Of a stretch of DNA of 64,000 nucleotides, positions 1 through 61,558 are shown piece by piece. A program made the position numbers and the translations under genes. The notes under the pieces were generated by a model that saw nothing but the letters and a program-made list of their open reading frames with translations, made no database searches and was not told the DNA's origin. Position 1 is the stretch's first letter; each line of letters opens with the position of its first letter. Source of the DNA: Alphaproteobacteria bacterium (GTDB taxonomy: Bacteria; Pseudomonadota; Alphaproteobacteria; UBA828); the NCBI GenBank assembly GCA_965214705.1, contig OZ243972.1, positions 2,496,001-2,560,000 on the forward strand, given 5' to 3'.

Positions 1-343
1 CCGGAAGAGTTCCCTCCCGCGCGCGCCGCCGCCACTTGGTCAGGGTCGTATCGCTGACGCCATGGCGGCGCGCGACCGCCGCAACCGAAGAGCCCGGCTC
101 AAAGCTCTCCGAGACAATCCGCGCCTTCTCATCGTCCGGCCAGCGTCGCATGGGGGCCGGCTCAGACGGAGCCGGGGCGGCTCCCTCAGAAGCTGGGATC
201 TCAACCGAAGCAACAGCGACACCGTCGCCAGATGCCAAAATCGAATCTGTCATCGCGATCTCTCCTGTGTGGCTCGTGGTCAAGGCGGAGAGTCAGCCCC
301 GAAATCAGATCCGCTGGAAGTATGGGGGCCCGATACCGCTTAC
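1..343 (-). mobile_element. IS66-family element copy 1, left end and start of tnpA (continues beyond the window)
   Basis: Reverse complement of the start of the element at 2039; terminal GTAAGCGGTA reads from 343 on the minus strand. Confidence 0.95.
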
Positions 344-2013
344 GAAGCACTGCCCCGCCTGTATGACGACTGCGCCACGTTGTTGGCCGCTCGGGACGTG
401 CTGGGGACGTGCTGGCCGGCGACGTCCAACTAAACTGGAGCGACGCGGTCCCCATCGGCTATTGGCGGGGTGTCACCGTCGGGATGCCCAACATCGCCGG
501 CGAGGCCGCGGAAGGGCCGCGGGTCATCGCCCTGGATCTGTCGCACGTGGGACTGAACGGGCGGATTCCCGCAGAGCTGTCGGCTCTGGACGCCCTTGCC
601 GTTCTGCGTCTTGGCAACAACCGGCTTGCGGGACCGATCCCGCCGGAACTGGGCGCCCTGACCGGGCTGCGGACGCTGGTACTGGAGAACAACGCGCTGA
701 CCGGCGAGATCCCGCCGGAACTGAGCGCGTTGCAGGCACTCGTTTGGTTGCGTCTTGGCGGCAACGAACTCACTGGCGGCATCCCGCAGGGACTGACCAC
801 ACTGACCGGTCTGCGGGTGCTCGCGCTGGAGAACAACATCTTGACGGGCAACGTCCATCCGCAGTTTGGCAACCTGTCGCGTCTGGAGGAGCTGCGGCTC
901 GAGAACAATCGTTTGCACGGAGCACTCCCCGAGGCTCTCGACCGGTGGGCTCATCTTGCGGTCCTCCGTCTGGGCGGCAACGCGTTTGCCGACTGCCTTC
1001 CGGCTACGGCGCGAGCAGCGCAGGTACGGCACAACGATCTGGATTCCGCCGATCTGCTCTGCGATCCTTCGCCCTGGACCAAACCGGGCCTGTTCGAAGA
1101 CGGCGCGCGTCTGATGCGCATGCGCGACACCCTGGCCGGCGACGCGCCGCTGAACTGGAGCTACGCTCGCCCCGTCGCGTCCTGGCAGGGCGTCACCATC
1201 GGTCGAGGGGGTCGCATCATCGCACTGGACTTGCGGGACATGAACCTGACCGGGCGGATCCCCCCGGAGCTGGGCGAGCTGGCCCATCTCCATCTGCTGC
1301 GGCTCGACGGCAACCGACTCACCGGCCCCATTCCACCGGAACTGGAAAACCTGACTCGTCTGACCATGCTGTCGCTGGACGGCAATCGCCTGATGGGTCC
1401 CATCCCGCAGGAGATCGCCAATCTGTCGAATCTCAGGCAATTGTGGCTGGCCCACAACCGTCTCACCGGTTCCCTCCCGCCCGAATTGGCCGGAATCAAG
1501 CGTCTCTCCCTGGCCGTCGCGGATAACGACTTCCAGGGCTGCATGCCGTGGCAACTGCGCGATCTGCGCAGCCACGATATCGATGACGGCTTCATCTGCA
1601 CTGCCCTGGCGAAGGGCAGACCGTTGCTTTGGAGACTGGGATTCGAGAAGGCCATGGAGGCGCCCGTCTTCGGTCACGGCCTGAGAACGTTGGCATATAT
1701 GGAAGGCGCCCCCATCGGACATCACGGCAAGCCGTTGGGCCCCCACAATCTCTACCTGACGTTGCTGGGCGAAGCGGGCATCGTCCCTCTGCTGCTGTTT
1801 CTGTCCGCCATCGTCCTGCTGCTGCGCGCGCAATGGGGCGCGCCGAAGTCGCTTGCCCGGGATGTGATCGTAGCCTGGGTCATCGTCATCGCCTTGTACT
1901 GCACGGCCTTCCAGCATCTACTCAAATTGGAAGCGTTCATGTTTCTCGCCGGGTTGAGTGTCGCGATAGGGGCGGTGCGCAGCGCCGGTGACCGATGTCC
2001 TGCGAAGGTGTGA
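344..2013 (+). pseudogene. Plant-type LRR protein fused to a C-terminal O-antigen ligase/Wzy_C membrane domain; 5' part cut off by IS66 and frameshifted near 393-414
   Basis: ORF 409..2013 has two blocks of 24-aa LxGxIPxELGxLxxLxxLxLxxNxL repeats, each after an 'RDxLAGD..LNWS..P...W.GVT' cap. These are followed by R..LW...P.FGHG, PHNLYLTLLGEAGI and hydrophobic helices. Upstream frame EALPRLYDDCATLLAARDVL starts at 344. Confidence 0.8.
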
Positions 2014-2098
2014 CAGTTGGCCGATGGCAGACTCCAGAGTAAGCGGTATCGGGCCCCCATACTTCCAGCGGATCTGATTTCGGGGCTGACTCTCCGCC

Positions 2099-2554
2099 TT
2101 GACCACGAGCCACACAGGAGAGATCGCGATGACAGATTCGATTTTGGCATCTGGCGACGGTGTCGCTGTTGCTTCGGTTGAGATCCCAGCTTCTGAGGGA
2201 GCCGCCCCGGCTCCGTCTGAGCCGGCCCCCATGCGACGCTGGCCGGACGATGAGAAGGCGCGGATTGTCTCGGAGAGCTTTGAGCCGGGCTCTTCGGTTG
2301 CGGCGGTCGCGCGCCGCCATGGCGTCAGCGATACGACCCTGACCAAGTGGCGGCGGCGCGCGCGGGAGGGAACTCTTCCGGGCGCTCGGATTGGTGGCTC
2401 TGCACCGCCATTTGTTCCCGTGGTGGTTGATAGCGTGACGTCCGAGCGGACGGTGGCGATCGAGGCGCTAGGCGTGGTCGTTCGCCTTCCGGTGGAGAGC
2501 GCGGTCGATCGGATTGTTGCGGTGGCCTCGGGCCTGGGCCGGGCGTCGTCATGA
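2099..2554 (+). CDS. tnpA: IS66 accessory protein TnpA (HTH)
   Basis: RRWPDDEKARIVSES..PGSSVAAVARRHGV..WRR motif. Confidence 0.9.
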   Translation: MTTSHTGEIAMTDSILASGDGVAVASVEIPASEGAAPAPSEPAPMRRWPDDEKARIVSESFEPGSSVAAVARRHGVSDTTLTKWRRRAREGTLPGARIGGSAPPFVPVVVDSVTSERTVAIEALGVVVRLPVESAVDRIVAVASGLGRASS

Positions 2555-2901
2555 TCGCGGCCCCCTCGCTTCGCATCGTGTTGGCGACGCGGCCGGTTGA
2601 TTTTCGTCGCGGCCACGACGCGCTTGCGGCGACGGCGGCGGGGGAGCTGGACCTCGATATCTATTCCGGGGTGATCGTGATCTTCCGCTCGCGCCGCGGC
2701 GACAGGCTCAAGCTCCTTGCGTGGGACGGCAGCGGTCTGGTGATGACCTACAAGCGTCTGGAGCAGGGCCGCTTCGCCTGGCCTCGGATCGAGGATGGTG
2801 TGATGCGCCTTACGAAGGGCCAGTTCGAGGCCCTCTTCGAGGGTCTGGACTGGCGCCGGGTGAAGGCCCGCCCGGTTCGCCGCCCGCTGGCGGCGGAGTG
2901 A
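2551..2901 (+). CDS. tnpB: IS66 accessory protein TnpB
   Basis: PVDFRRGHDALA..FRSRRGDRLKLL.WDG.GL..YKRLEQGRF.WP; ATGA overlap with tnpA. Confidence 0.93.
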   Translation: MIAAPSLRIVLATRPVDFRRGHDALAATAAGELDLDIYSGVIVIFRSRRGDRLKLLAWDGSGLVMTYKRLEQGRFAWPRIEDGVMRLTKGQFEALFEGLDWRRVKARPVRRPLAAE

Positions 2902-2909
2902 GGCGGCAC

Positions 2910-2948
2910 GCAGGCGGGGCCGCAGATTTCGGTCGCGGTCCCGCCTGC
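2910..2948 (+). terminator. GC-rich hairpin between tnpB and tnpC (repeated at about 25143-25181)
   Basis: GCAGGCGGG...CCCGCCTGC stem followed by ACTTTT. Confidence 0.5.
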
Positions 2949-2967
2949 ACTTTTCCCTGGTCATGCA

Positions 2968-4710
2968 TTGGCGAATCGGATTAAGGGGTGGCCCATGCCG
3001 AAGGTCACGCCCTCACCCCTCAGCAGCGCCGGTTCGCCGTCGCCTGCGGTGGTTTCGGCGGCGCTGGCGGCCCTGCATGCGGAGCTTGACGACGAGCGCG
3101 CGGCGCGCCGGGCGACGGAAGCAGCCCTATGCGAAGCGGAGCAGGCACGCGGCGCGGCGGAGGCGGCGAGGCAGACGGCGGAAGCGCGGGCGGCACGGCT
3201 GGAGGCCGAGAACGCGCAGAGCGCGGAGCAGATCAGCCGGCTTGAGCATCTCAACAAGGAGCTCAGGAAGGCGCTGTTCGGTCCGCGCTCCGAGAAGCTC
3301 GGCGAGGACGAGCGCCAGCTTACGTTCGAGGAGTTTTGGGCGGCGATCGCTGAAGCCGGCGGTCGGCCCGAGGCAGATGACCAGGAGCAGGACGAGGGGG
3401 CTGGCGGCAAGCGCCGGCGGCGCTCTTCCCGGGGGTCGCGCAGCGGGGTGCGCTTCGGGCCCCAGGTCGACCGGCGCGAGGAGGTGATCGAGCCGGACAC
3501 GATCATGTGCCCCTGCGGCTGCGGCGAGATGACGAAGATCGGCGAGGACCGCAGCGAGCGGCTGGACTATGAGCCGGCGAAGTTCACCGTCATCGAGACC
3601 GTGCGCCCCCGCTACGCCTGCAACAAGTGCAAGGGGGGCGGGGTGGTGCAGTCGCCGGCGCCGGCCGCTCTGGTCGAGGGCGGCCTTCCCACCGAGGCTC
3701 TTCTGGCGCAGGTGCTGATCGCGAAGTACGGCGATCATTGCCCGCTCTATCGCCAGTCGCAGATCTACGAGCGCTCGGGGATCGAGGTTCACCGTGCGAC
3801 GCTGGCGACGTGGGTGGGCCAGGCGTCGTTTCACCTGCGCCCCGTGGTCGCTTGCCTGGAGGATGAGCTGAAGAAGTCGGATCACCTGGGTCTGGACGAG
3901 ACCACGATCCGCGTTCTCGACCCGGGCCGGGGCAAGACGAAGACGGGCTACATGTGGACCCTTGTGCGTGACGAGCGCCACTGGAGCGGCACGGACCCGC
4001 CGGGCGTCGTCTATCGCTATGCGCCCGGCCGCGGCGGCAAGTATGGCGCCGAGCTTATGGAGGGCTTTTCGGGGACGGTGCAGCTCGACGGCTACTCGGG
4101 CCACAACATCCTGGCGCGGCCGGACCGGGCGGAAGGCCCTGTGACGCGGGCCCTCTGTTGGGCGCATGTAAGACGGAAGCTGAAAGAGGTATACGACTCG
4201 AGCGCATCGCCGATCGCGCTGGCCGGTCTGAATCGGATCGCGAAGCTCTATGCGATCGAGAAGAAGATCCGGGGCAAGCCGCCGGCGGAGCGCCGCGCGA
4301 TCCGTTGGGAGGAGTCGGCGCCGATCGTGAACACCTTCGGTGTCTGGCTCGACGAGCAGCGCTCGCGCGTCTCACCGCGCTCGCGTCTCGGCGAGAAGCT
4401 GACCTATATCGCCAACCAGTGGGACGGGCTGCTGGAGTTCCTGCACGACGGTCGTGTCGAGATCGACTCGAACCTGGTGGAAAACCGAATCCGGCCGCTG
4501 AAGCTCACCGCCAAGAACGCGCTCTTCGCCGGCAACGACGAGGGTGCGCAAGCCTGGGCCCGCATCGCCTCGCTGATCGAGACCTGCAAGATGAACGGCG
4601 TCGAGCCCTACGCCTGGATGCGGAGCACGCTCGAGAAGATCGCCAAGGGCCACCCGCAGTCGGGCATCCAGGAGCTTCTGCCGTGGAACTTCCAGCCCGA
4701 GGCAAAATGA
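2968..4710 (+). CDS. tnpC: IS66 transposase TnpC
   Basis: LFGPRSEK, CPCGC zinc finger, LDETT, LCWAHVRRK, IDSNLVENRIRP. Confidence 0.96.
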   Translation: MANRIKGWPMPKVTPSPLSSAGSPSPAVVSAALAALHAELDDERAARRATEAALCEAEQARGAAEAARQTAEARAARLEAENAQSAEQISRLEHLNKELRKALFGPRSEKLGEDERQLTFEEFWAAIAEAGGRPEADDQEQDEGAGGKRRRRSSRGSRSGVRFGPQVDRREEVIEPDTIMCPCGCGEMTKIGEDRSERLDYEPAKFTVIETVRPRYACNKCKGGGVVQSPAPAALVEGGLPTEALLAQVLIAKYGDHCPLYRQSQIYERSGIEVHRATLATWVGQASFHLRPVVACLEDELKKSDHLGLDETTIRVLDPGRGKTKTGYMWTLVRDERHWSGTDPPGVVYRYAPGRGGKYGAELMEGFSGTVQLDGYSGHNILARPDRAEGPVTRALCWAHVRRKLKEVYDSSASPIALAGLNRIAKLYAIEKKIRGKPPAERRAIRWEESAPIVNTFGVWLDEQRSRVSPRSRLGEKLTYIANQWDGLLEFLHDGRVEIDSNLVENRIRPLKLTAKNALFAGNDEGAQAWARIASLIETCKMNGVEPYAWMRSTLEKIAKGHPQSGIQELLPWNFQPEAK

Positions 4711-4798
4711 CTCGCGCGCTCACGGCGCTCCTCAAGAAATCCCCGTCGTAGTCAAGCCAGATTCCGGTATGGGGTCTGCGTACCGCTTACACTCCAGA

Positions 4799-6027
4799 TC
4801 GGGTTCGTGCTGCCCAACCTGGACGGAGGCGGTGCGCAGCGCGTCATTCTGAGCCTGGCGCGGTCGCTCATCGAGCGCGGGCACCGGGTTGACTTGGTGA
4901 TTCCCTGCTTCGCGGGAGACTACCGGGTCGCAATTCCCCGCGGCGTGCGATTGTACCGGGGACGGCTTCCTCACACCGACAGGAGGTTCCTGCGGGAAGT
5001 CCAAAGTTCGGGCGCGGAGGTAACAGCGCTCTGCGTGAACCCGGTCAAGGTCGCGTGGACCGGGCTGGTTCTCGGCCGGAAGCACCCTGGCGTGCGGGTC
5101 CGGTGGCAGCGTTCTCTCTATGCTTCCGTCCACATTCTGAACCGCTACCTCCGCGAGGCGCGTCCCGATGTGCTGGTGTCGGCGCTGCGGGTCGCCGACG
5201 CCGCCGCGGTCTGCGCCGCGCAGTTGACGGACCGGGCCGTTCCGGCGGTGGTCACGGTGCACACCAATGTCGCCGCCAGCTATGTGCCGGAGTGGCTGGC
5301 CGCCGCCCGGACGCTCTATCCGCTGGCCGACGCAGTGGTGGCGGTGTCCAGGGGCGTGGGAGAGTCAGTGCGGCGATCGTTGGGGGTGGACGCCGAGCGC
5401 ATTCACGCCATCTACAACCCCATTCCCGCCGACAGCATATGGCGGCTGGCGCAGCAGGAGGTCACGCACCCCTGGTTCGCGGACGGCGAGCCCCCGGTGA
5501 TCCTGAGCGTCGGGCGCGAGGCGCCCCTGAAGGACCACCCCACCCTGGTGGAGGCGTTCGGACTGGCGCGGCGCGAAGTGAACGCGCGGCTGGTTATCCT
5601 TGGCAAGCTCTCGGCGCCGTACCGGCAAAGGCTCCAGTCCCTGGCGCGGGGCCATGGCGTGGAGGAAGACCTCGGCTTCGTGGACTTCGACGAGAACCCG
5701 TACCGCTACATGAGGCGGGCCGGACTGCTCGCGCTGTCCTCGCGCTGGGAGGGTCTGCCGACAGTGGTCCTCGAGGCGCTGGCCTGCGGCACGCCGGTAG
5801 TGAGCACCGACGCGCCCTACGGTCCGCGGGAGATCCTCGGGGGTTGGGGCGAGCTGCCGCCGGTGGGCGATGCGCCGGCGCTGGCGCGGGCGTTGGTCGC
5901 GACGCTGCGCGGCGCGCGGCCGACGGAGGAAGCGCTGCGTGCGCGCGCCGCCGACTTTTCCGATGACAAGGCCGCCGACGCCTACGAGGCATTATTCCGA
6001 AAGCTGGTGAGGGAGCGAGCACGGTGA
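4799..6027 (+). pseudogene. GT4 glycosyltransferase paralog 1; first codons (TTG at 2017-2038) separated by IS66 copy 2
   Basis: Removing the IS and one TSD gives (M)ADGRLQIGFVLPNLDGGG, matching the paralog starts. SSRWEGLPTVVLEALACG GT4 motif. Could still be translated from GTG 4807. Confidence 0.85.
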
Positions 6028-7283
6028 GGTCGGATAAACTCCATGTCTGCGTCACGATGACCAATCTGGCCGGCGGCGGAGTGGAGCGCAACATTCTCCG
6101 CTTAGCGCGGTCACTCATCGAACGAGGACACCGGGTGGACTTGGTGATCCCCCGGTTCGCAGGAGACTATCTGGCGGCGATACCCGGTGGAATGCGTGTC
6201 TGGCGGGCCCGGATTCCCGGTACCGATAAGACGTTCTTGCGAAAGGTCCAGCGGGCGGGAATCGAGGTGGAAGCGATGACCGTCAACCCCGTCGGCGCCG
6301 CGTGTGCCTGGCTGGCTCTCGCCCGGAAGCATCCCGGCATACCGGTCATACGCGGCAGCGGCATGCGCTCCATCTATCCCTACGCCCATGTTCTAGCCCG
6401 CCACCTTCGCGAGGAACGTCCCGATGTGCTGGTGTCGGCGCATATGGGCCCCAACGCCATTGCGGTCTGCGCCGCCGAGTTGATGGGCCGGGCCGTCCCG
6501 ACGGTGATCACAGTGCGCAATAACGTTACCGCCGGCTATGCGCCGCATTGGCTGACGGCGGCCCGGACGCTCTATCCGCTGGCCGACGCGGTGGTGGCGG
6601 TGTCCAGGGGCGTGGCGGATTCCGTGCGGCGGTTCGTGGGCGTGGACGCCGGTCGTGTCCATGCCATCTACAACCCCATCCCTGCCGACAGCATATGGCG
6701 CCTGGCCCAGGAGGAAGTCGCGCACCAATGGTTCGGGGAGGGCGAGCCGCCGGTTATCCTGAGCGTCGGCCGTGAGGCGCGGCAGAAGGACCACCCCACG
6801 CTAGTGGAGGCGTTCGGGCTGGCGAGGCGCGAAGTGAACGCGCGGCTGGTTATCCTCGGCAAGCTCTCTGCCCCCTACCGGCAAAGGCTCCAGTGCCTGG
6901 CGCGGGGCTATGGCGCGGAGGAAGACCTCGGCTTCGTGGACTTCGACGAGAACCCGTTCCGCTACATGCGGCGGGCCAGGCTGCTCGCGCTGTCCTCGCG
7001 CTGGGAGGGTCTGCCGACCGTGGTCATCGAGGCACTGGCCTGCGGCACGCCGGTGGTCAGCACCGACACGCCATACGGTCCGCGCGAGATCCTTGGGGGT
7101 TGGGGCGAGTTGCCGCCGGTGGGCGACGCGCCGGCGCTGGCGCGGGCGCTGGTCGCGACGCTGCGCGGCGCGCGGCCGACGGAGGAATCGCTGCGGGCGC
7201 GCGCCGCCGACTTTTCCGATGACAAGGCCGCCGACGCCTATGTCGCGTTGTTCGAGAAGCTGGTGAGGGAGCGCGCGCGGTGA
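6024..7283 (+). CDS. GT4 glycosyltransferase paralog 2 (intact)
   Basis: GGGVER N-terminal motif; SSRWEGLPTVVIEALACG; GTGA overlaps on both sides. Confidence 0.92.
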   Translation: MRSDKLHVCVTMTNLAGGGVERNILRLARSLIERGHRVDLVIPRFAGDYLAAIPGGMRVWRARIPGTDKTFLRKVQRAGIEVEAMTVNPVGAACAWLALARKHPGIPVIRGSGMRSIYPYAHVLARHLREERPDVLVSAHMGPNAIAVCAAELMGRAVPTVITVRNNVTAGYAPHWLTAARTLYPLADAVVAVSRGVADSVRRFVGVDAGRVHAIYNPIPADSIWRLAQEEVAHQWFGEGEPPVILSVGREARQKDHPTLVEAFGLARREVNARLVILGKLSAPYRQRLQCLARGYGAEEDLGFVDFDENPFRYMRRARLLALSSRWEGLPTVVIEALACGTPVVSTDTPYGPREILGGWGELPPVGDAPALARALVATLRGARPTEESLRARAADFSDDKAADAYVALFEKLVRERAR

Positions 7284-8696
7284 AGTCGGACAAGCTCCAT
7301 GTCGGCTTTCTGCTGACCAGCGTGAACGGCGGCGGGGCGGAGCGCAGTATTCTCCGAAAGGCTTATCCCCTTACATCCGGCTTCTCCATATGTGGGGTGC
7401 CGGATCGCTGGGCACTTTACGGGCAACCCATTGAGACACGGAAGGAACTGCGACCGTGTCGGATACCGCCGCCGAGGTGGCCGGTACAACATGTTGGGGA
7501 ACCGGAGCCAGAGGGATAAGCCTTTTCTCCGATTGGCCCAGTCGCTCATCGAGCACGGGCACCGGGCGGATCTGGTGATCCCCAAATTCGCGGGAGACTA
7601 CCGGGCCGCGATCCCTGGCGGAATGCGCGTCTATCGGGCGCGGTTTCCCGGCACCGACAGGAAGCTGCTGCGGGAGGTGCAGCGGGCGGGAATCGAGGTG
7701 AAAGCGATGACCGTCAACCCCATCGGCATCGGCCGCACTTGGCTGACTCTCGCCGGGAAAGGCTTCAACCTACCCGTTCGAAGTCGTCACCGCGTCTATG
7801 CGTATGCATCCATGATCGCGACATACGTTCGTGAGGCGTGCCCTGATGTGCTGGTGTCGGCGCTGCCGGGCGCCGACGCCGCCGCGGTCTGTGCCGCGGA
7901 GTTGACGGACCGGACCGTTCCGGTGGTGGTCACGGTGCGCATCAACGTCGCCGCCGACTATACGCCGGAGTGGCTGGCCGCTGCTCGGACGCTCTATCCG
8001 CTGGCCAATGCGGTGGTGGCGATATCCAGGGGCGTGGGCGAGTCCGTGCGGCAATCGTTGGGGGTGGATCCCGGCCGCATTCATACCATCTACAACGGCG
8101 TTCCTATCGACAGCATACGGCAGCTGGCGCAGGAGGAAGTCACGCACCCGTGGTTCGCGGACGGCGAGCCGCCGGTGATCCTGTGCGTCGGGCGCGAGGC
8201 GCCGCAGAAGGATCACCCCACCCTGGTGGAGGCGTTCGGTTTGGTGCGGCGCGAGGTGAACGCGCGGCTGGTTATCCTCGGAAAGCTGTCGGCGGCCTAC
8301 CGCGAAAGGCTCAAGCGCCTTGCGCGGGGCCATGGCGTGGAAGCGGACCTCGGCTTCCTGGACTTCGACGAGAACCCATTCCGCTACATGCGGCGTGCGA
8401 CGCTGCTCGCGCTCTCCTCGCGCTGGGAGGGCCTGTCGATGGTGGTCATCGAGGCGCTGGCCTGCGGCACGCCGGTGGTCAGCACCGACGCGCCCTACGG
8501 TCCGCGCGAGATCCTGGGCGCGTGGGGCGGCCTGCCGCCGGTGGGCGACGCGCCGGCGCTGGCGCTGGCGCTGGCTGAGACGCTGCGCGGCGCGAGGCTG
8601 CCGGAGGTAGCGCTGCGGGCGCGCGCAGCCGACTTCTCCATTGACACGGCCGCCGAGGCCTACGAAGCGCTGTTCCGGAAGCTGGTGAGGCGATAG
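7280..8696 (+). pseudogene. GT4 glycosyltransferase paralog 3, interrupted by MITE-A
   Basis: MKSDKLHVGFLLTSVNGGGAERSILR joins LAQSLIEHGHRAD across the 7358-7524 insertion. Confidence 0.9.
7358..7524 (+). mobile_element. MITE-A copy 1 (167 bp, IS1595-type ends)
   Basis: IR AAGGCTTATCCC...GGGATAAGCCTT; TSD TTCTCCGA at 7350-7357 and 7525-7532. Confidence 0.95.
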
Positions 8697-8709: not shown

Positions 8710-10041
8710 ATGACGCCGCAAGAGCCGGACAGGCCGCCCGGTCCGCGCACGACCGGCGGGCAGGATGCGGCCGTCGTGTTCGCGACCCAAGTTGGCAGGG
8801 TCATCTTCGGCCTGGCGATCCAGAGTCTTTTGGCCTACACGCTGCTGCCGGAGGGGCGCGGCAGCTTCGCCCTGTGCGTGGTGTTCGCAAGTGTTCTCGG
8901 CGTGCTCTTCACGCCGGGGGCGCGAGAAGGCGCGCAGTATTTCGTCATGACGAAGCAGGCGACGGTTTCGGAAGGCATTGGCGCCGCCCTGGCGATCTGC
9001 CTCGCCGGCGGGGGCTTCGCGATCGCACTGGTGGCTCCGTTCGTCCATAGCGAGTCGGCGTTCTTCCAGCAGGCGGAGACGCGCTCCTTCTACCTGGCGC
9101 TCGCCCTGGTTCCCGTCATGGCGTTCTCGATCGCCATGGAGTACCAACTCGCCGCGCTCCGGCGCTTCGGACATCTCGCGGCGTTCTCCCTGCTGCATGT
9201 CGCCGTGAACATCCTCGTTCTGCTGGTCCTCCTCTGGGCCGGGCGGCTCGGGGTGGACGGCGCCGTCGCGGCGGTCATTGCCGCGCATGGCTGCACGATA
9301 GCCTTGTGCGCGCGGTTCCTGCGGCGACGTCACGGGCTGGTTCTGGCCAATCCGTTCCACGCCCCTTCCGCGCGTATCGTCGGCTATGGCCTGCGGTTCC
9401 ATCCCGCGGGCCTAGGCGGCGCGCTGGAGATGAGCGCGGCCGTTCTCATTCTCGGGCTGTTCGCAAGCCAGGCGGAAATCGGCCTGTTCGCAACCGCGAG
9501 CGCTCTCGTGTTCCGACTGAAAATGATCTCGGACTCGGTCGGCAACGCGCTGCTGCCCCGTATCGCCGGCAGCGGCCGCCCGGAACTGACGACGCTCTGC
9601 CTGCGCGTCGTCTTGTGCGGCACCGCGACCGCGAGTCTCGCCGTGCTGGCGGTAAGCGAGCCGCTGGTCCGGATACTGTTCTCGGAGGCCTTCCTGCCGG
9701 CGGTCCCGCTGCTGTGGATCATCGCCCTCGGAGTACTCGCCTGCGCCTGCGCCGGCATACTTGGAACCTATTTCAAGGCCATCGACCGCCCGGGCGTCTG
9801 TTCCTGGGCCGTCTCCTTGGGCTTGGTAGCGAACCTCATTGCGATTCCCGCGCTCTATCCGGCGATCGGCGTCGAAGCCGCGGCCTGGGGGCTGACCCTC
9901 GGCATGAGCTGCCGACTCCTCATTCTCGCGGCGGCGTTCGGAAGAGCGACTGGAATGGGCTGGCTCTCAATCTGGCTGCCGCGACCCGGCGACGCGGTCT
10001 CCGCCTGGCGGGCATTCCGCGCCGCGCTCGGCAGCGGGTGA
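8710..10041 (+). CDS. Wzx-like polysaccharide flippase
   Basis: About 12 hydrophobic segments; LLPEGRGSF, IGLFATA and ILFSEAFLPAVPLLWI motifs; glycan-locus context. Confidence 0.8.
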   Translation: MTPQEPDRPPGPRTTGGQDAAVVFATQVGRVIFGLAIQSLLAYTLLPEGRGSFALCVVFASVLGVLFTPGAREGAQYFVMTKQATVSEGIGAALAICLAGGGFAIALVAPFVHSESAFFQQAETRSFYLALALVPVMAFSIAMEYQLAALRRFGHLAAFSLLHVAVNILVLLVLLWAGRLGVDGAVAAVIAAHGCTIALCARFLRRRHGLVLANPFHAPSARIVGYGLRFHPAGLGGALEMSAAVLILGLFASQAEIGLFATASALVFRLKMISDSVGNALLPRIAGSGRPELTTLCLRVVLCGTATASLAVLAVSEPLVRILFSEAFLPAVPLLWIIALGVLACACAGILGTYFKAIDRPGVCSWAVSLGLVANLIAIPALYPAIGVEAAAWGLTLGMSCRLLILAAAFGRATGMGWLSIWLPRPGDAVSAWRAFRAALGSG

Positions 10042-12161: not shown

Positions 12162-13842
12162 ATGAGCAATCCCGAGTCGCCGCGCGGCCCTTCGACGGGG
12201 GCAGCGCCCGAAACGCCCGCACAGAAGATCGCCCATCTGGAAGAGGAGAACACCCGGCTTCGAGAGGAAAACGCTTGGCTTCGGCAGCAGAACGCGCGGC
12301 TGGAAGAGCAAGTCGCGCGTCTCGTCGAGCGCATCGAGGAGTTGGAGCGCCGTCTTGGCCTCGACAGCGGCAACAGTGGCAAGCCGCCTTCGAGCGATGG
12401 GCTGAAGAAGCCGAGGTCGAAGCGGCGAACCCGAAGCCTGCGCGGCAAATCGGGCCGCAAGCCCGGCGGGCAGCCCGGCCATGAGGGCAAGACGCTGCGC
12501 CACCGCGATCACCCGGATCGGGTGAAGGACCACATGCCGGCTTCCTGCAAGGGATGCGGCTCGTCGCTTTTGGACGCGGCCAAGGCGGGAACGCCGGTCG
12601 CCCGCCAGGTCTTCGATCTGCCCGAGCCGAGCCCACTGGAGGTGACCGAGCACCGGGCGCATGCCAAGTGCTGCGGGCATTGCGGGACGGTGACGCGGGC
12701 GGCGTTCCCCGATGGGGTGTCGGCACCGGTGCAGTACGGCCCTCGCATTGCAGGCGTGGCGGTCTACCTTCAGCACGCCCACTTCCTGCCGGAGGATCGG
12801 CTGTCGCAGGTGATGGCCGAGCTGTTCGGCGCGCCGGTGACGGCTGCGACGCTGGCGACGATGAGCGAGAGGGCGGCAGAGCGGCTGCGGGACGTGGCCT
12901 CGCACATACAGAACCTGGCGGCGGGCACGGCGCGGGTGAAGCACATGGACGAGACCGGGTTCCGGATCGGCGGGCAGACGCAGTGGCTTCATGTGATCTG
13001 CACGCCGCATCTGGCGGCGTACCGGGTCAGCGGCAGGCGCGGCGCCTTGCTCTCGGGTGTTTCCGGCATCGTCGTTCACGATCACTGGAAGCCGTACTTC
13101 GCGATGGAGGGGGTGGAGCACAGCCTGTGCAACGCCCATCACCTGCGGGAGTTGCAGGCTCTGGTGGACATCGAAGGGGAGGCTTGGGCCCGGCGGATGC
13201 TCAAGCTCCTGCGCCGGGCCAATCGCGCCGCCCGGATCGCACAGGACAAGGATATCGCCGTTCCGGCGAGGCTTGTGGCGCTGATCGAGCGCCGATACGA
13301 CGAGATCATTGCCGAGGCGTTGGCCTTCCACGAGAGCCAACCGCCGTTCTCGCCTGGCAAGAGGAAGAAACGCCGGAAAGGCTTATCCCCTTACATCCGG
13401 CTTCTCCATATGTGGGGTGCCGGATCGCTGGGCACTTTACGGGCAACCCATTGAGACACGGAAGGAACTGCGACCGTGTCGGATACCGCCGCCGAGGTGG
13501 CCGGTACAACATGTTGGGGAACCGGAGCCAGAGGGATAAGCCTTACGCCGGAAACGACGGATCGGTCACAATCTGGCCTTGAGGCTGCGCGACCACAAGT
13601 GCGCGGTGCTCCGGTTCCTGACCGACCTCGAGGTCGGGTTCACAAACAACGAGGCCGAGCGCGACCTTCGGATGATGAAGCTGCGCCAGAAGATCTCCGG
13701 CGGCTTCCGATCCGCGCAGGGGGCCGAGAACTTCGCCATCCTGCGCAGCGTCATCACCACCGCCAGAAAGCAGGGCTGGAACATCATCGAAGCCCTGATG
13801 AGCCCATCGGATCGGCTCATCGCCACCGTCAAGTGCGCGTGA
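12162..13842 (+). pseudogene. IS66 (ISBst12-type) transposase interrupted by MITE-A
   Basis: NSGKPPSSD, KPGGQPGH, DETG, CNAHHLREL; C-terminal FTNNEAERDLRMMKLRQKISGGFRS resumes after 13544. Confidence 0.92.
13378..13544 (+). mobile_element. MITE-A copy 2
   Basis: Same sequence as 7358-7524 by eye; TSD ACGCCGGA at 13370-13377 and 13545-13552. Confidence 0.95.
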
Positions 13843-15825: not shown

Positions 15826-15833
15826 TCCGGGAA

Positions 15834-16000
15834 AAGGCTTATCCCTCTGGCTCCGGTTCCCCAACATGTTGTACCGGCCACCTCGGCGGCGGTATCCGAC
15901 ACGGTCGCAGTTCCTTCCGTGTCTCAATGGGTTGCCCGTAAAGTGCCCAGCGATCCGGCACCCCACATATGGAGAAGCCGGATGTAAGGGGATAAGCCTT
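15834..16000 (-). mobile_element. MITE-A copy 3 (inverted)
   Basis: Reverse complement of 7358-7524. Confidence 0.95.
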
Positions 16001-16095
16001 TGGGAGAAATATCAGAAAAATGGTGATGTGAACTACACCGGAAAATTGGACGAATTCTTGAAAGATCATTCAACAGATTTCGTCGAATTGAGGTA

Positions 16096-24199: not shown

Positions 24200-27100
24200 A
24201 TGATTGTCACCGAAACGCCGCTTCGGATCAGCTTCGCCGGCGGCGGCACCGATCTACCGGAGTACTACAACGTAAGCGGTATCGGGCCCCCATACTTCCA
24301 GCGGATCTGATTTCGGGGCTGACTCTCCGCCTTGACCACGAGCCACACAGGAGAGATCGCGATGACAGATTCGATTTTGGCATCTGGCGACGGTGTCGCT
24401 GTTGCTTCGGTTGAGATCCCAGCTTCTGAGGGAGCCGCCCCGGCTCCGTCTGAGCCGGCCCCCATGCGACGCTGGCCGGACGATGAGAAGGCGCGGATTG
24501 TCTCGGAGAGCTTTGAGCCGGGCTCTTCGGTTGCGGCGGTCGCGCGCCGCCATGGCGTCAGCGATACGACCCTGACCAAGTGGCGGCGGCGCGCGCGGGA
24601 GGGAACTCTTCCGGGCGCTCGGATTGGTGGCTCTGCACCGCCATTTGTTCCCGTGGTGGTTGATAGCGTGACGTCCGAGCGGACGGTGGCGATCGAGGCG
24701 CTGGGCGTGGTCGTTCGCCTTCCGGTGGAGAGCGCGGTCGATCGGATCGTGGCTGTGGCCTCGGGCCTGGGTCGGGCGTCGTCATGATCGCGGCCCCCTC
24801 GCTTCGCATCGTGCTGGCGACGCGGCCGGTTGATTTTCGTCGCGGCCACGACGCGCTTGCGGCGACGGCGGCGGGGGAGCTGGATCTCGATATCTATTCC
24901 GGGGTGATCGTGATCTTCCGTTCGCGCCGCGGCGACAGGCTCAAGCTTCTCACCTGGGACGGGACCGGCCTGGTGATGACCTACAAGCGTCTGGAGCAGG
25001 GCCGCTTCGCCTGGCCCCGGATCGAGGACGGTGTGATGCGCCTCACGAAGGGCCAGTTCGAGGCCCTGTTCGAGGGCCTTGACTGGCGCCGGGTCAAGGC
25101 CCTCCCGGTTCGCCGCCCGCTGGCGGCGGAGTGAGGCGGCACGCAGGCGGGGCCGCAGATTTCGGTCGCGGTCCCGCCTGCACTTTTCCCTGGTCATGCA
25201 TTGGCGAATCGGATTAAGGGGTGGCCCATGCCGAAGGTCACGCCCTCACCCCTCAGCAGCGCCGGTTCGCCGTCGCCTGCGGTGGTTTCGGCGGCGCTGG
25301 CGGCCCTGCATGCGGAGCTTGACGACGAGCGCGCGGCGCGCCGGGCGACGGAAGCAGCCCTATGCGAAGCGGAGCAGGCACGCGGCGCGGCGGAGGCGGC
25401 GAGGCAGACGGCGGAAGCGCGGGCGGCACGGCTGGAGGCCGAGAACGCGCACAGCGCGGAGCAGATCAGCCGGCTTGAGCATCTCAACAAGGAGCTCAGG
25501 AAGGCGCTGTTCGGTCCGCGCTCCGAGAAGCTCGGCGAGGACGAGCGCCAGCTTACGTTCGAGGAGTTTTGGGCGGCGATCGCTGAAGCCGGCGGTCGGC
25601 CCGAGGCAGATGACCAGGAGCAGGACGAGGGGGCTGGCGGCAAGCGCCGGCGGCGCTCTTCCCGGGGGTCGCGCAGCGGGGTGCGCTTCGGGCCCCAGGT
25701 CGACCGGCGCGAGGAGGTGATCGAGCCGGACACGATCATGTGCCCCTGCGGCTGCGGCGAGATGACGAAGATCGGCGAGGACCGCAGCGAGCGGCTGGAC
25801 TATGAGCCGGCGAAGTTCACCGTCATCGAGACCGTGCGCCCCCGCTACGCCTGCAACAAGTGCAAGGGGGGCGGGGTGGTGCAGTCGCCGGCGCCGGCCG
25901 CTCTGGTCGAGGGCGGCCTTCCCACCGAGGCTCTTCTGGCGCAGGTGCTGATCGCGAAGTACGGCGATCATTGCCCGCTCTATCGCCAGTCGCAGATCTA
26001 CGAGCGCTCGGGGATCGAGGTTCACCGTGCGACGCTGGCGACGTGGGTGGGCCAGGCGTCGTTTCACCTGCGCCCCGTGGTCGCTTGCCTGGAGGATGAG
26101 CTGAAGAAGTCGGATCACCTGGGTCTGGACGAGACCACGATCCGCGTTCTCGACCCGGGCCGGGGCAAGACGAAGACGGGCTACATGTGGACCCTTGTGC
26201 GTGACGAGCGCCACTGGAGCGGCACGGACCCGCCGGGCGTCGTCTATCGCTATGCGCCCGGCCGCGGCGGCAAGTATGGCGCCGAGCTTATGGAGGGCTT
26301 TTCGGGGACGGTGCAGCTCGACGGCTACTCGGGCCACAACATCCTGGCGCGGCCGGACCGGGCGGAAGGCCCTGTGACGCGGGCCCTCTGTTGGGCGCAT
26401 GTAAGACGGAAGCTGAAAGAGGTATACGACTCGAGCGCATCGCCGATCGCGCTGGCCGGTCTGAATCGGATCGCGAAGCTCTATGCGATCGAGAAGAAGA
26501 TCCGGGGCAAGCCGCCGGCGGAGCGCCGCGCGATCCGTTGGGAGGAGTCGGCGCCGATCGTGAACACCTTCGGTGTCTGGCTCGACGAGCAGCGCTCGCG
26601 CGTCTCACCGCGCTCGCGTCTCGGCGAGAAGCTGACCTATATCGCCAACCAGTGGGACGGGCTGCTGGAGTTCCTGCACGACGGTCGTGTCGAGATCGAC
26701 TCGAACCTGGTGGAAAACCGAATCCGGCCGCTGAAGCTCACCGCCAAGAACGCGCTCTTCGCCGGCAACGACGAGGGTGCGCAAGCCTGGGCCCGCATCG
26801 CCTCGCTGATCGAGACCTGCAAGATGAACGGCGTCGAGCCCTACGCCTGGATGCGGAGCACGCTCGAGAAGATCGCCAAGGGCCACCCGCAGTCGGGCAT
26901 CCAGGAGCTTCTGCCGTGGAACTTCCAGCCCGAGGCAAAATGACTCGCGCGCTCACGGCGCTCCTCAAGAAATCCCCGTCGTAGTCAAGCCAGATTCCGG
27001 TATGGGGTCTGCGTACCGCTTACACTACAACGACCATGGCAGCCGAATCGTGAGTTGCGCGATCGACAAGTACGTCTATGTCATCGTGAAACGACGGTAC

Positions 27101-59000: not shown

Positions 59001-61496
59001 TCACACGATGCCGAGCGCCGCGACAAACTCGCGATAGGGCGCGAATGCCTCGTTCACGCCCTCCGGCGTGAGGTCGTAGTCCTCCAACTGATACTCGTGC
59101 CGCGGCTCTTGCCGGCGTTGCTCCTCTTGGAGCGTGAGCCACTCCTGCATGGCGCGGGCGGAGGCCGCCTCCAGGGGCCAGCCGAGGCGCGCGTAGATGT
59201 CGTTCACGACCGCCATCGGATCGTCGACCAGATCGGTATAACGCACGTCGACCCAGCGTTCTTCGAGCGCGGGTTTGGAGGCGCGGAACTGCATCGCGCC
59301 GTTCAGCACGCCACTCATGAAGGCCAACTGCTCGGCGCCGGCCTCGTGCGGCGGTCTCGGCTCTGTGGAAAAGCCTCGAATCCGCTCCACTATACTGTTC
59401 CACGAGCCCATAACCTCGACGGGCTCGCGATGGGTCTGGATGAAGACGGCATCCGGGTAGGTCTCCAGCAGCACCTCCAATTCTATGAGATGAAAAGGCA
59501 TCTTGAGCAGCCAGTGCCGCTCTCCTTCCGACTCCCGTTGCCGCCGCTGCCAGGTGAAGTGCTGCATGACGCGCCGGTGATGCGCGTAGGCATTGCGTGA
59601 CCCGGTTTCTGCGAGCCAACGGCCATAGGCCGGTACGTGATACGCGGTCGCAAATATCCAAGTCGAGAAGGTAAGCCAGAGTATCCACAAGTCCTCCTCT
59701 GGCTCGTCGATATCGGTGCGGTGGAGTCCGGCGAGCGTATCGACGACATTGGTCGCGCCCAACAGCTCTTTCGCGTAGGCCCGGCGGGGATCGTCGGCCG
59801 TGCCTGCGACAGTGGCATATTCGCCTGAAGGCAACACCGGCTCGGTCAACTCGTAGCGTCGTAGCGCCCAGAACTGCGGATCGCGCGACAGCAGGCGATG
59901 CAGAAAAGTCGTGCCGGTGCGGTTGATGCCGACGATGAAGACCGGCCGTGTGATCCGCTCCCGCTCGATCTCGGGGTGCTGCCGCCGTTCGCGGGCGAGC
60001 GCCGCATTGCTGCGGAGTGCGCGGGTCAGTCCGTAGATGATGTGGCTGAGCCGCGTATCCCGCAGTCCGGCCTCCGGGGATTTCAGCGCCTCCACGAGTT
60101 GCTGGAGGCCGGCGCGCATCCACGAAGGGTAGGTTGGCTCGAAGGGCACGCCCATTCGTTGGGCGAAGCGCTCTGCCTGAGCGATGAGACCGTCGAAGTC
60201 CAGGTTGCCCTGCGGAATTGGATAGGGCCATCCCTCCCGATGACGCCTGACCCAGTCGTAGGAACGCGCATGGCGTATCAGCAGTGCCGGCCACTTGATC
60301 GGGTGGGGGCAGTCCGCCCGAATGGCGCGGTCGCAGACCATCGCCGTGCGCCGGGCCTTGTCCTCGCTGAACCAGTAGGGCGCAAAATGGTCGATCAGCA
60401 CCCACTGGCCGCGCAACGGAGACTCCTCCCCGAGGGCCTGGCACGAACGCCTGAAGGATGCGTAGGGAACGCTCTGCCAATAATAGCCTAGATCGGCGAC
60501 TTCCAGATCTTCGTAAGGGGGCTCTGGATCGCAGCAATGGTAGATGGTGAAGCGGCGGTTGGGGTTGAGCGAAATCGCCGTGCAGATTTCGCTGACCGTG
60601 TCGACCGGCTCGGCGTTTCTTTGTATCGAAAAGCCATGCGGTGCCTTTCCCAGTTGCGTCGCGGCGGCAAACAGGCGGGCTGGAAGGTCGTTCGCTTGCG
60701 TATACCCCGTGCTGGAGAGCCCCATCTGCGGCAGGCGAAAGATCGCGACCGGCACGCCCGCCGCCTGCGCGATCAGGACGCCTTGCTCGGCCACCAGCTT
60801 GCTCCACGGGTACCCGATGGCGCCGAGCGGAAAGGTTATTTTCATGTCGGCGAGGTCGGGCTGCATCTGATCGTCGATGCGGCTGCGGCTGTGCTCTTCA
60901 CCAAAATCGCAGAAATACGCCGGGAAAATTCCCATGGTGGAGCCGTAAAACAGATGCTTGAGGCGGGTCCGCAAGCAGAGCTCGAGCACGGAACGAAGGC
61001 CGAGCGTGTTTTCCTCGCGAATATCGGCGTAGGACATGACGAGGCCCACGTTGGCGGCAAGATGGTAGACCGCGTCGATCCGCCGGCAGAGCTCGTCGAA
61101 CGCGGGCTCGCCTAGACCGAAGCGTTCCTCGCAGGCGTCGCCGGGCACCACGCGCAGCCGCGGGGCGAACTCCTCCTCCCAGACCTCGGCGCACTCCAGT
61201 GCGTCGCGTATCCGCCCCAGCCCATGCTCGGCGCTCTTGGCACGGACCAGGCAGTGCACGATCAGCCGATCGTTCTGCCGCAGGAGCTCGCGCAGGAAGA
61301 AGCGCCCCACGAAGCCGGTCGCCCCGGTCACAAAAACCTCCTGAAAGTTGTTTGGGGATACCGCCGGAGCTGGGGCCCCCTGCGCGAGCGTCTCGTGAAC
61401 AACGCGACGCAGCGCGTCCACGTCCTTGCGGCATTGCGGCGGCAATTCGCCGATAAGAGGCGGCACCGCTCGGTCGGCGGCAACTGGCACGTTCAT
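59001..61496 (-). CDS. Thioester reductase fused to a sulfotransferase (SwfB-like)
   Basis: TGATGFVG, HCLVRA, GYPWSKLVAE; then PVFIVGINRTGTTFL, WLLKMPFH, THREP. Confidence 0.88.
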   Translation of the reverse strand: MNVPVAADRAVPPLIGELPPQCRKDVDALRRVVHETLAQGAPAPAVSPNNFQEVFVTGATGFVGRFFLRELLRQNDRLIVHCLVRAKSAEHGLGRIRDALECAEVWEEEFAPRLRVVPGDACEERFGLGEPAFDELCRRIDAVYHLAANVGLVMSYADIREENTLGLRSVLELCLRTRLKHLFYGSTMGIFPAYFCDFGEEHSRSRIDDQMQPDLADMKITFPLGAIGYPWSKLVAEQGVLIAQAAGVPVAIFRLPQMGLSSTGYTQANDLPARLFAAATQLGKAPHGFSIQRNAEPVDTVSEICTAISLNPNRRFTIYHCCDPEPPYEDLEVADLGYYWQSVPYASFRRSCQALGEESPLRGQWVLIDHFAPYWFSEDKARRTAMVCDRAIRADCPHPIKWPALLIRHARSYDWVRRHREGWPYPIPQGNLDFDGLIAQAERFAQRMGVPFEPTYPSWMRAGLQQLVEALKSPEAGLRDTRLSHIIYGLTRALRSNAALARERRQHPEIERERITRPVFIVGINRTGTTFLHRLLSRDPQFWALRRYELTEPVLPSGEYATVAGTADDPRRAYAKELLGATNVVDTLAGLHRTDIDEPEEDLWILWLTFSTWIFATAYHVPAYGRWLAETGSRNAYAHHRRVMQHFTWQRRQRESEGERHWLLKMPFHLIELEVLLETYPDAVFIQTHREPVEVMGSWNSIVERIRGFSTEPRPPHEAGAEQLAFMSGVLNGAMQFRASKPALEERWVDVRYTDLVDDPMAVVNDIYARLGWPLEAASARAMQEWLTLQEEQRRQEPRHEYQLEDYDLTPEGVNEAFAPYREFVAALGIV

Positions 61497-61558
61497 CGTA
61501 TCGTCCCAGGCTCTTTCATGTGCCGCAGCGGGGTCCGTTCTCCTGTCGCCGGATCGTG

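Follow-up and report, generated by a model that had tools for sequence, protein, structure and literature searches.

The left end of an alphaproteobacterial DNA stretch of 64,000 nucleotides (the window) raises the question why LRRs of the plant receptor type should run in frame into the C-terminal half of an O-antigen ligase-like enzyme. A sequence-only reading had placed the repeats in the extracytoplasmic loop of a WaaL/Wzy_C-type enzyme and had suggested acceptor selection, or coupling of glycan assembly to a host ligand, as their role. In the literature searched (subscription journals and supplements aside) we found no description of an LRR and O-antigen ligase fusion, and the accessible parts of PMC7848895 and PMC6506613 are without it. 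The parts are known and the combination is new to the literature searched; database annotations may already list both domains.

Results

The ligase gene of the window is a broken copy

The uninterrupted reading frame at 409-2013 (+) is predicted to encode the last 534 aa of a protein of about 2000 aa (Table 1). Its 81% identity to residues 1458-1984 of the 1989-aa relative P0063 assigns the window protein to the giant class described below. Pfam detected LRR_1 (E 1e-31) and, at residues 401-465, Wzy_C (PF04932) with 34.8 bits against a cut-off of 31.7, confirming the expected family membership. The two capped LRR blocks hold 5 and 3 full 24-aa repeats by pattern search, or 7 and 5 LRR strands when the first and last half-repeats are counted on reading the sequence, so that the earlier estimate of about 6 and 4 was a fair one. 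GRPLLW, PVFGHG and PHNLYL motifs follow, then hydrophobic helices; R404 is encoded at nt 1618-1620 and H446 at nt 1744-1746.

About 1450 N-terminal codons, including those of all nine N-terminal helices, lie outside the window, which opens inside IS66 copy 1. Truncation by this element had been recognised before; two corrections concern an 11-bp tandem duplication at 393-414 and the place of IS66 copy 2. The duplication shifts the ligase frame: 344-408 and 409-2013 are read in different frames. The GT4s noted downstream, three in number, and the flippase are present, but IS66 copy 2 separates the ligase gene from the GT4s and breaks the first of them near codon 8. A third IS66 copy lies at 24272-27023. 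An inversion between copies 1 and 2 was considered and ruled out, copy 2 having matching target duplications.

Three of the five cassette genes are broken in the window. Because the ligase gene, GT4 gene 1 and GT4 gene 3 are all interrupted, the cassette is inactivated in this genome, and the window's ligase copy is a pseudogene, disrupted by IS66 and the 11-bp duplication and accompanied by two interrupted GT4s. Further broken ligase copies were seen at L014:10381-12376, L045:8574-10399, L024 and L032; inactivation is not unique to the window. The window flippase itself gave no Pfam match at E 0.1, and its orthologue in L004 (87% DNA identity) matched Polysacc_synt_3 (PF13440) above the cut-off.

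Several other features of the window were observed. A 169-bp element with terminal inverted repeats occurs in three near-identical copies (7356-7524, 13376-13544 and 15831-16008); GT4 gene 3 is broken by one of them and an IS66-family transposase gene by another, and the third lies near an IS1595-family transposase. Positions 9967-38000 form a glycan island rich in mobile elements (IS66, IS1595 and ISAs1 transposases, a TrwC fragment), with an AsnB-type amidotransferase, more GT4 and GT2 genes, GalE, and heptose kinase/phosphatase-like genes. Positions 59001-64000 (-) hold the end of a type I PKS/FAS (ER-KR-ACP) and then a thioester-reductase/sulfotransferase fusion; this region resembles the swf cluster of sponge symbionts.

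Table 1. Features of the ligase gene and its cassette in the window
Feature	Position	Strand	Remarks
IS66 copy 1, left end	1..343	-	342 bp 100% identical to copy 2 left end; truncates ligase gene
Penultimate LRR module, cap start	344..408	+	out of frame with 409-2013; 344-frame translation matches P0072, P0065, P0009
Penultimate LRR module	409..1000	+	cap, 5 full 24-aa plant-type repeats, two half-repeats
Last LRR module	1060..1542	+	Cys-containing cap, 3 full repeats, two half-repeats
Wzy_C C-terminal half	1609..1803	+	holds R404 (WaaL R265 equivalent) and H446 (WaaL H313 equivalent)
Membrane helices 10-12 and stop codon	1765..2013	+	hydropathy; helices 716-779 of P0010 model
GT4 gene 1, 5' stub	2017..2038	+	cut by IS66 copy 2; compared with eight loci with GT4 directly after ligase
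IS66 copy 2 (tnpA, tnpB, tnpC)	2039..4790	+	8-bp target duplication ACTCCAGA at both ends
GT4 gene 1, remainder	4791..6027	+	best NCBIfam match PglJ, below cut-off
GT4 gene 2	6024..7283	+	apparently intact
GT4 gene 3	7280..8696	+	169-bp repeated element at 7356-7524 interrupts near 5' end
Wzx-type flippase	8710..10041	+	apparently intact; 81-87% DNA identity to 15 LRR loci

The LRR-in-loop architecture is conserved in relatives

A family search with window-protein residues 365-534 (the junction and the C-terminal part) detected 61 proteins of 293-935 aa, one of them the window's own, and 87 of 936-2670 aa. Profiles of the N-terminal and C-terminal membrane halves were used to score the architecture of the 147 relatives. 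N-half, LRRs and C-half followed in this order in 43 of the 60 shorter and 81 of the 87 longer ones (124/147), every LRR match in these 124 falling between the two membrane halves; the remaining relatives were without the N-half or without LRRs. The junction is colinear in all 124 and occurs in other genomes, which rules out an assembly chimera, and the LRR-in-loop ligase architecture is real and conserved.

The typical layout comprises nine N-terminal helices, 2 to about 10 Cys-capped plant-type LRR modules, and a Wzy_C half with three helices. The expected N-terminal membrane region was thus found, in the relatives, the window's own upstream part lying beyond its edge. The LRR insert spans 220-1950 aa and its length is bimodal, below 400 aa in 41/122 proteins and 1400-1800 aa in 62/122. 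Members of the giant class carry 9 to 10 modules, each with a Cys-pair cap and mostly three repeats. Both length classes are often found in one locus (L001, L003, L006, L007, L008, L011, L015). In two Acidobacteriota genomes the giant LRR ligase is fused in frame to the first GT4, giving proteins of 2230-2280 aa (L019:4913-11689, L020:4847-11689, P0103).

Fold, catalytic residues and topology favour a ligase-type enzyme

The AlphaFold2 model of the intact relative P0010 (792 aa, 144 sequences) reached pLDDT 87.8 and pTM 0.76; nine helices stand ahead of the insert and three long ones behind it. VIA-align placed WaaL (7TPJ) on residues 3-785 of this model with Z 21.9 and rmsd 4.3 over 339 aligned residues, and SEDS proteins matched more weakly (Z 13-15). 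The 12-helix GT-C fold of WaaL is therefore predicted for intact P0010; the window copy has the last three helices only. Among PDB sequences the family profile matched, at E<0.001, only the oligosaccharyltransferase 9RMK (E 5e-12) and WaaL 7TPG (E 2e-11). Foldseek with the whole P0010 model returned only LRR chains among the matches listed.

In the 7TPG alignment, from whose printed form the WaaL residue numbers were counted, R191 aligns with a family S-R-T motif, R265 with the Arg of GRPLLW, and H313 with the His of PHNLY. The equivalents are kept in 114/122, 140/143 and 138/143 LRR-bearing proteins, respectively, and the R/H motif pair singled out in the earlier reading is accordingly the catalytic pair; the R191 equivalent is absent from the window fragment. 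In WaaL, R191 and R265 bind the diphosphate and H313 activates the acceptor, and across clan GT-C1 a His at this site marks O-ligases, with Asp/Glu in polymerases, GT127 excepted (Meitil et al., PMC10920833, accessible parts). At the H313 position the LRR-bearing proteins have His, apart from Asp in 3 and Asn in 2 of the 143, rather than the Asp/Glu of Wzy polymerases (GT125-129). Because related polymerase families have Asp/Glu here, the His favours a ligase-type reaction.

These residues bear on the idea that the enzyme is the Wzy polymerase of its cassette, with the LRR chain standing in for Wzz as a guide or length ruler. GT4s with Wzx are what a Wzy pathway usually comprises, the 10-kb flanks of LRR loci held no recognisable Wzz, and the two insert-length classes would suit a ruler. 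However, the catalytic residue is His, WaaL is the best structural match among glycosyltransferases, flexible linkers would make a poor ruler, and a Wzz may lie beyond the 10-kb flanks. We consider a polymerase unlikely and keep to the ligase-type reaction below.

In 40 full-length members the charge bias was strongly positive for loops 2, 8 and 10, negative for the segments flanking the insert, and ambiguous for loops 1 and 5; positive loops with negative flanks indicate that the insert faces outward, as expected. Helix order in the relatives, the P0010 model and this charge bias bear out the placement of the LRRs within the extracytoplasmic loop of a WaaL/Wzy_C-type enzyme. In relatives that have no insert, the match covers the whole PF04932 profile, at 43-58 bits.

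The LRR modules fold like plant receptor ectodomains and are maintained

Plant receptor ectodomains match the modules of the P0010 model with Z 18-23 (VIA-align) and, within it, the orthologue of the window's last module with Z 21-22 and rmsd 1.5-2.5. The modules have the 24-aa LxxLxLxxNxLxGxIP repeat, N-terminal cap and receptor-ectodomain fold of plant-type LRRs; LRRNT_2 matched solely below the cut-off, in L045. Models of LRR type III effectors (XopAC, XopAE, XopL) and of Leptospira LRR proteins scored 35-82 bits against cut-offs of 450-1000 and were set aside as generic LRR matches. For P0010 the ESM Atlas, searched in its larger clusters, gave ordinary Wzy_C clusters (0.86); for the array it gave generic LRR ones. 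No cluster among the matches listed had both.

A model of seven modules from the giant of L002 (17 sequences, pLDDT 79.4, pTM 0.42) has folded modules joined by low-confidence linkers, so no fixed superstructure is predicted. Among 18 giants, dN/dS was 0.08 for the LRR framework, 0.71 for concave exposed residues, 0.53 for convex residues, and 0.50 and 0.40 for the two halves of the membrane part, values of which the ranking alone is reliable, high GC3 compressing dS in giants. Positive selection on the concave face was not seen in these giants (dN/dS <1 in every class), and concave residues are the least conserved class, with 58% identity. Most modules (142/156) have their nearest counterpart in another locus (81%) and not in their own gene (59%), which would fit a kept module order; recent transfer would also give this pattern. 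The selection data show that the array is maintained, and point neither to a fixed ligand site nor to an arms race.

The loop has an exchangeable slot, and a second lineage carries LRRs at another site

An all-against library search gave 353 proteins at E<=0.001. In the best 150 of these the loop ranges from about 30 aa to more than 1500 aa and holds nothing, Ig-like repeats, other inserts, single LRR modules or LRR arrays. A SCAB-Ig/AIR9-like match was found in the loop of P0166 and a weak fn3 match in that of P0187; besides P0166 there are 14 further Ig-type loci, mostly in Chloroflexota, and insert-free relatives stand beside the same flippase family in L043 and L046. We also noted slots with 1-3 SCAB-Ig/AIR9-like modules (L005, L025-L031, L033, L034, L036, L037, L039; P0054, P0058, P0159, P0166) and yet another insert of about 400 aa in P0187 and P0198. 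In a quick 67-row tree the LRR clade of the window is nested among Ig-bearing relatives and separate from a second LRR group. The LRR label changes 4 times on this tree, with at least 2 changes forced by well-supported branches (the tree carries neither bootstrap nor topology test).

A different protein of 2035 aa is encoded at L045:13579-19683 (+). Its Pfam Wzy_C match is interrupted at profile positions 105/119, which places the array behind the R...W...PxxGxG motif and not in front of it. Scoring of the best 8000 candidates gave 15 relatives for it, of 1122-2427 aa, each of which carries an LRR array. In this second lineage (L045 and P0289-P0304) an array of 13-37 repeats lies between the PxxGxG and HN motifs; by pattern, the Arg motif precedes the array in 14/16 and the His motif follows it in 14/16. 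The N-half profile of family 1 matched none of the 16 proteins. LRR arrays thus entered Wzy_C enzymes at two sites in two lineages, and the LRR-loaded arrangement appears to have arisen more than once.

An exchangeable slot invites the suggestion that the LRR chain is cargo: the loop would be a membrane anchor that displays, or later releases, eukaryote-like modules, or would merely tolerate them, and the chain would have a role apart from glycan transfer. The slot contents agree with this (nothing, Ig-like repeats in P0166, a weak fn3 in P0187, or 1-10 LRR modules), as do modules strung on low-confidence linkers (array pLDDT 79, pTM 0.42) and the general enrichment of LRR, FN3 and cadherin domains in sponge symbionts (PMC6506613, accessible parts). 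On the other hand, arrays of 1400-1900 aa keep their module order across phyla with dN/dS <1 in every class, and two unrelated Wzy_C lineages acquired LRR arrays beside the active site. ORFs with at least 2 LRR matches in the 47 loci of the genome scan are all Wzy_C proteins or pieces of them, a biased count, the loci having been chosen around such genes. We regard a cargo role as possible but doubtful, and prefer a role of the chain in glycan transfer.

A GT4-flippase cassette is shared between phyla

A GTDB scan gave 47 loci, with LRR-bearing forms in L001-L023, L035, L042, L044 and L045. The carriers, all of them uncultured genomes, belong to Gammaproteobacteria, Pseudomonadales, Alphaproteobacteria, Nitrospirales, Entotheonella, Gemmatimonadota, Vicinamibacterales, Terriglobia, Bryobacterales and Thermodesulfobacteriota, and several have more than one LRR ligase copy. 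All carrier phyla found are Gram-negative in envelope type, and the list of taxa is typical of sponge microbiomes. The community of the cassette is probably a sponge microbiome, a habitat judged from these taxa.

The ligase usually heads a cassette of three GT4s and a Wzx-type flippase. In the 25 LRR loci compared for gene order (L044 and L045 left out), a shared GT4 family follows the ligase on its own strand in 19 and a shared flippase family, by gene call, in 14; six have neither. Genes of the window share 77-87% DNA identity with loci of Nitrospirales (L002), Entotheonella (L005), Gemmatimonadota (L008), Bryobacterales (L021) and Gammaproteobacteria (L001). The flanks of LRR loci differ, often with transposases, and the ligase-family tree mixes phyla (quick IQ-TREE, no bootstrap). 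From the high identity across phyla, the differing flanks and the mixed tree we infer that the cassette spreads horizontally between phyla. A tblastn search of plasmids (PLSDB) gave no match.

Wzz, an initiating transferase, a pilin and an exosortase were not recognised by Pfam among 101 of the 145 neighbours selected from 10-kb flanks, and the cassette showed no gene for an initiating phosphoglycosyl transferase. In Chloroflexota a flippase, a GT4 and a related ligase stand in a row at five loci. Three Pseudomonadales loci are without GT4s (L009, L016 and L035, 2296-4193, -); there the giant adjoins a nucleotidyltransferase/transglutaminase-like (lasso B2-like) gene, with an ABC transporter too in two of the three. 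Tandem multi-helix proteins of 650-900 aa stand beside Ig-type ligases (L028:5958-8669, L033, L029, L037:13160-15502, L025:15562-17526), have long C-terminal soluble domains, gave no Pfam match, and are possibly further GT-C enzymes or acceptors.

The distribution bears on two further explanations. A true WaaL would join the glycan to lipid A-core; the LRR chain would then gate the periplasmic reaction or fix its place. The WaaL fold, all three residues, the Gram-negative carriers and heptose-pathway-like genes in the window's island and near some loci (matches below cut-offs) speak for it. Chloroflexota are without LPS. The nearest non-LRR relatives lie in this phylum, which argues against lipid A-core transfer for the wider family, and near-identical enzymes occur in phyla whose LPS cores should differ. 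We judge a true WaaL function improbable.

Alternatively, the LRR chain might sense a host ligand and switch surface glycan assembly, as the sequence-only reading had offered. The modules do fold like plant receptor-kinase ectodomains, and the carrier taxa are those of sponge microbiomes. However, a shared fold shows no function, and neither an outer-membrane translocator nor a signalling or export domain was found in the protein or recognised among the scanned neighbours; moreover, the loop is periplasmic in Gram-negative carriers, so direct host sensing is very improbable. An enzyme whose LRR chain would recognise its acceptor or a partner protein in the periplasm is the reading that we carry forward.

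Discussion

The first interpretation of this locus holds in part: loop placement, catalytic pair and junction stood, acceptor selection is plausible, and the link to a host ligand is weak. Its extent was understated, with an intact protein of about 2000 aa and 9-10 modules, an exchangeable slot, a second lineage, a cassette that seems to move between phyla, and a pseudogene copy in the window itself.

From the observed fold, residues, insert position and gene order, with the chemistry taken over from WaaL, we tentatively propose that the LRR ligase is an en-bloc glycan ligase or oligosaccharyltransferase with an extracytoplasmic protein-binding arm; this is our best explanation, held with less than even confidence. 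One part of it is probable by analogy, namely that a short lipid-linked glycan is passed en bloc to an extracytoplasmic acceptor. As predicted from its relatives, the intact gene codes for a GT-C enzyme with 12 helices, of the WaaL/O-oligosaccharyltransferase type. The three GT4s would assemble a short oligosaccharide on a lipid-diphosphate carrier, and the Wzx-type flippase would turn it outward. The two arginines of the ligase would bind the diphosphate, and the histidine would drive en-bloc glycan transfer to an acceptor on the outer side of the cytoplasmic membrane. A flexible chain of 2 to about 10 Cys-capped LRR modules lies between helix 9 and the second arginine. It may serve as an exchangeable recognition arm, binding either acceptor or partner protein and keeping it by the active site.

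The arm would be dispensable for the basic reaction, because some relatives do without an insert, among them two that neighbour a flippase of the same family. As acceptor, an envelope protein or polymer is likelier than lipid A-core. Against our best explanation, no acceptor gene was recognised next to the cassette: neither a cognate pilin nor a PEP-CTERM gene was found by Pfam among the 101 neighbours and cluster representatives, a selection of genes of at least 120 aa in which a short pilin could be missed. Likewise against it, the concave LRR face is variable and indicates no fixed ligand pocket.

A broader and more speculative idea, which we hold to be doubtful as a whole, is that of receptor-guided glycosyltransferases. 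An expandable and exchangeable LRR or Ig-like array beside the active site would pick the acceptor, would have evolved independently in at least 2 Wzy_C lineages, and would let unrelated symbionts, through a portable cassette, mark selected envelope proteins with one and the same glycan.

In symbionts, eukaryote-like repeat proteins are mostly without measurable activity. Here the repeats are tied to an enzyme of known chemistry, so that their role is testable via the glycan product. WaaL-type enzymes accept inserts of up to about 1900 residues at two sites of their catalytic loop, which bears on acceptor choice and on glyco-engineering. Five phyla share a five-gene cassette at about 77-87% DNA identity, a sign that members of one community have a surface glycan in common. 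That three genes of the cassette are broken in this genome suggests that such a glycan can also have a cost.

Comparison with known systems

The family shares with WaaL (GT121; 7TPG/7TPJ) the 12-helix fold, the Wzy_C domain and the R191/R265/H313 equivalents. It differs in 15% identity in the structural alignment, in the LRR insert and in the mobile GT4-Wzx cassette. The O-oligosaccharyltransferases (PglL/PglS, TfpO/TfpM) have the same Wzy_C core, the family profile matching 9RMK residues 53-421 (E 5e-12), and the cassette GT4s resemble PglJ below the cut-off. Wzy_C and WaaL-like domains cannot tell WaaL from O-oligosaccharyltransferases, and PglL_A with Wzy_C_2 defines the PglL/PglS enzymes (PMC12645811). 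Unlike these, the window protein and 30 relatives were without PglL_A and Wzy_C_2 in Pfam scans, and an LRR array is not described in the accessible parts of PMC12645811.

TIGR03097 (PEP-CTERM/exosortase A-associated putative O-glycosylation ligase) is the sole NCBIfam family that matches insert-free relatives, with 34-45 bits; the best score, 44.5 bits, is below its cut-off of 188, and neither P0010 nor the window protein matched. Neighbouring genes resemble TIGR03088 GT4 and TIGR03108 amidotransferase, but no exosortase or PEP-CTERM gene was recognised nearby.

WadA (GT121 + GT25), a bimodular O-ligase, is a precedent for an extra domain (PMC10920833, accessible parts), comparable with the GT4 fusions P0103, L019 and L020. 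In contrast to the LRR ligases, the extra domain of WadA is an appended enzyme and not a repeat array within the catalytic loop. The eukaryote-like LRR proteins of sponge symbionts and the ectodomains of plant LRR receptor kinases (SERK, BIR, SOBIR1, ERL1) are also among the closest known systems, the latter with the same 24-aa repeat and N-terminal cap and with Z 18-23. Unlike the plant receptor kinases, the modules described here are short tandem units inside a bacterial membrane enzyme, with no kinase.
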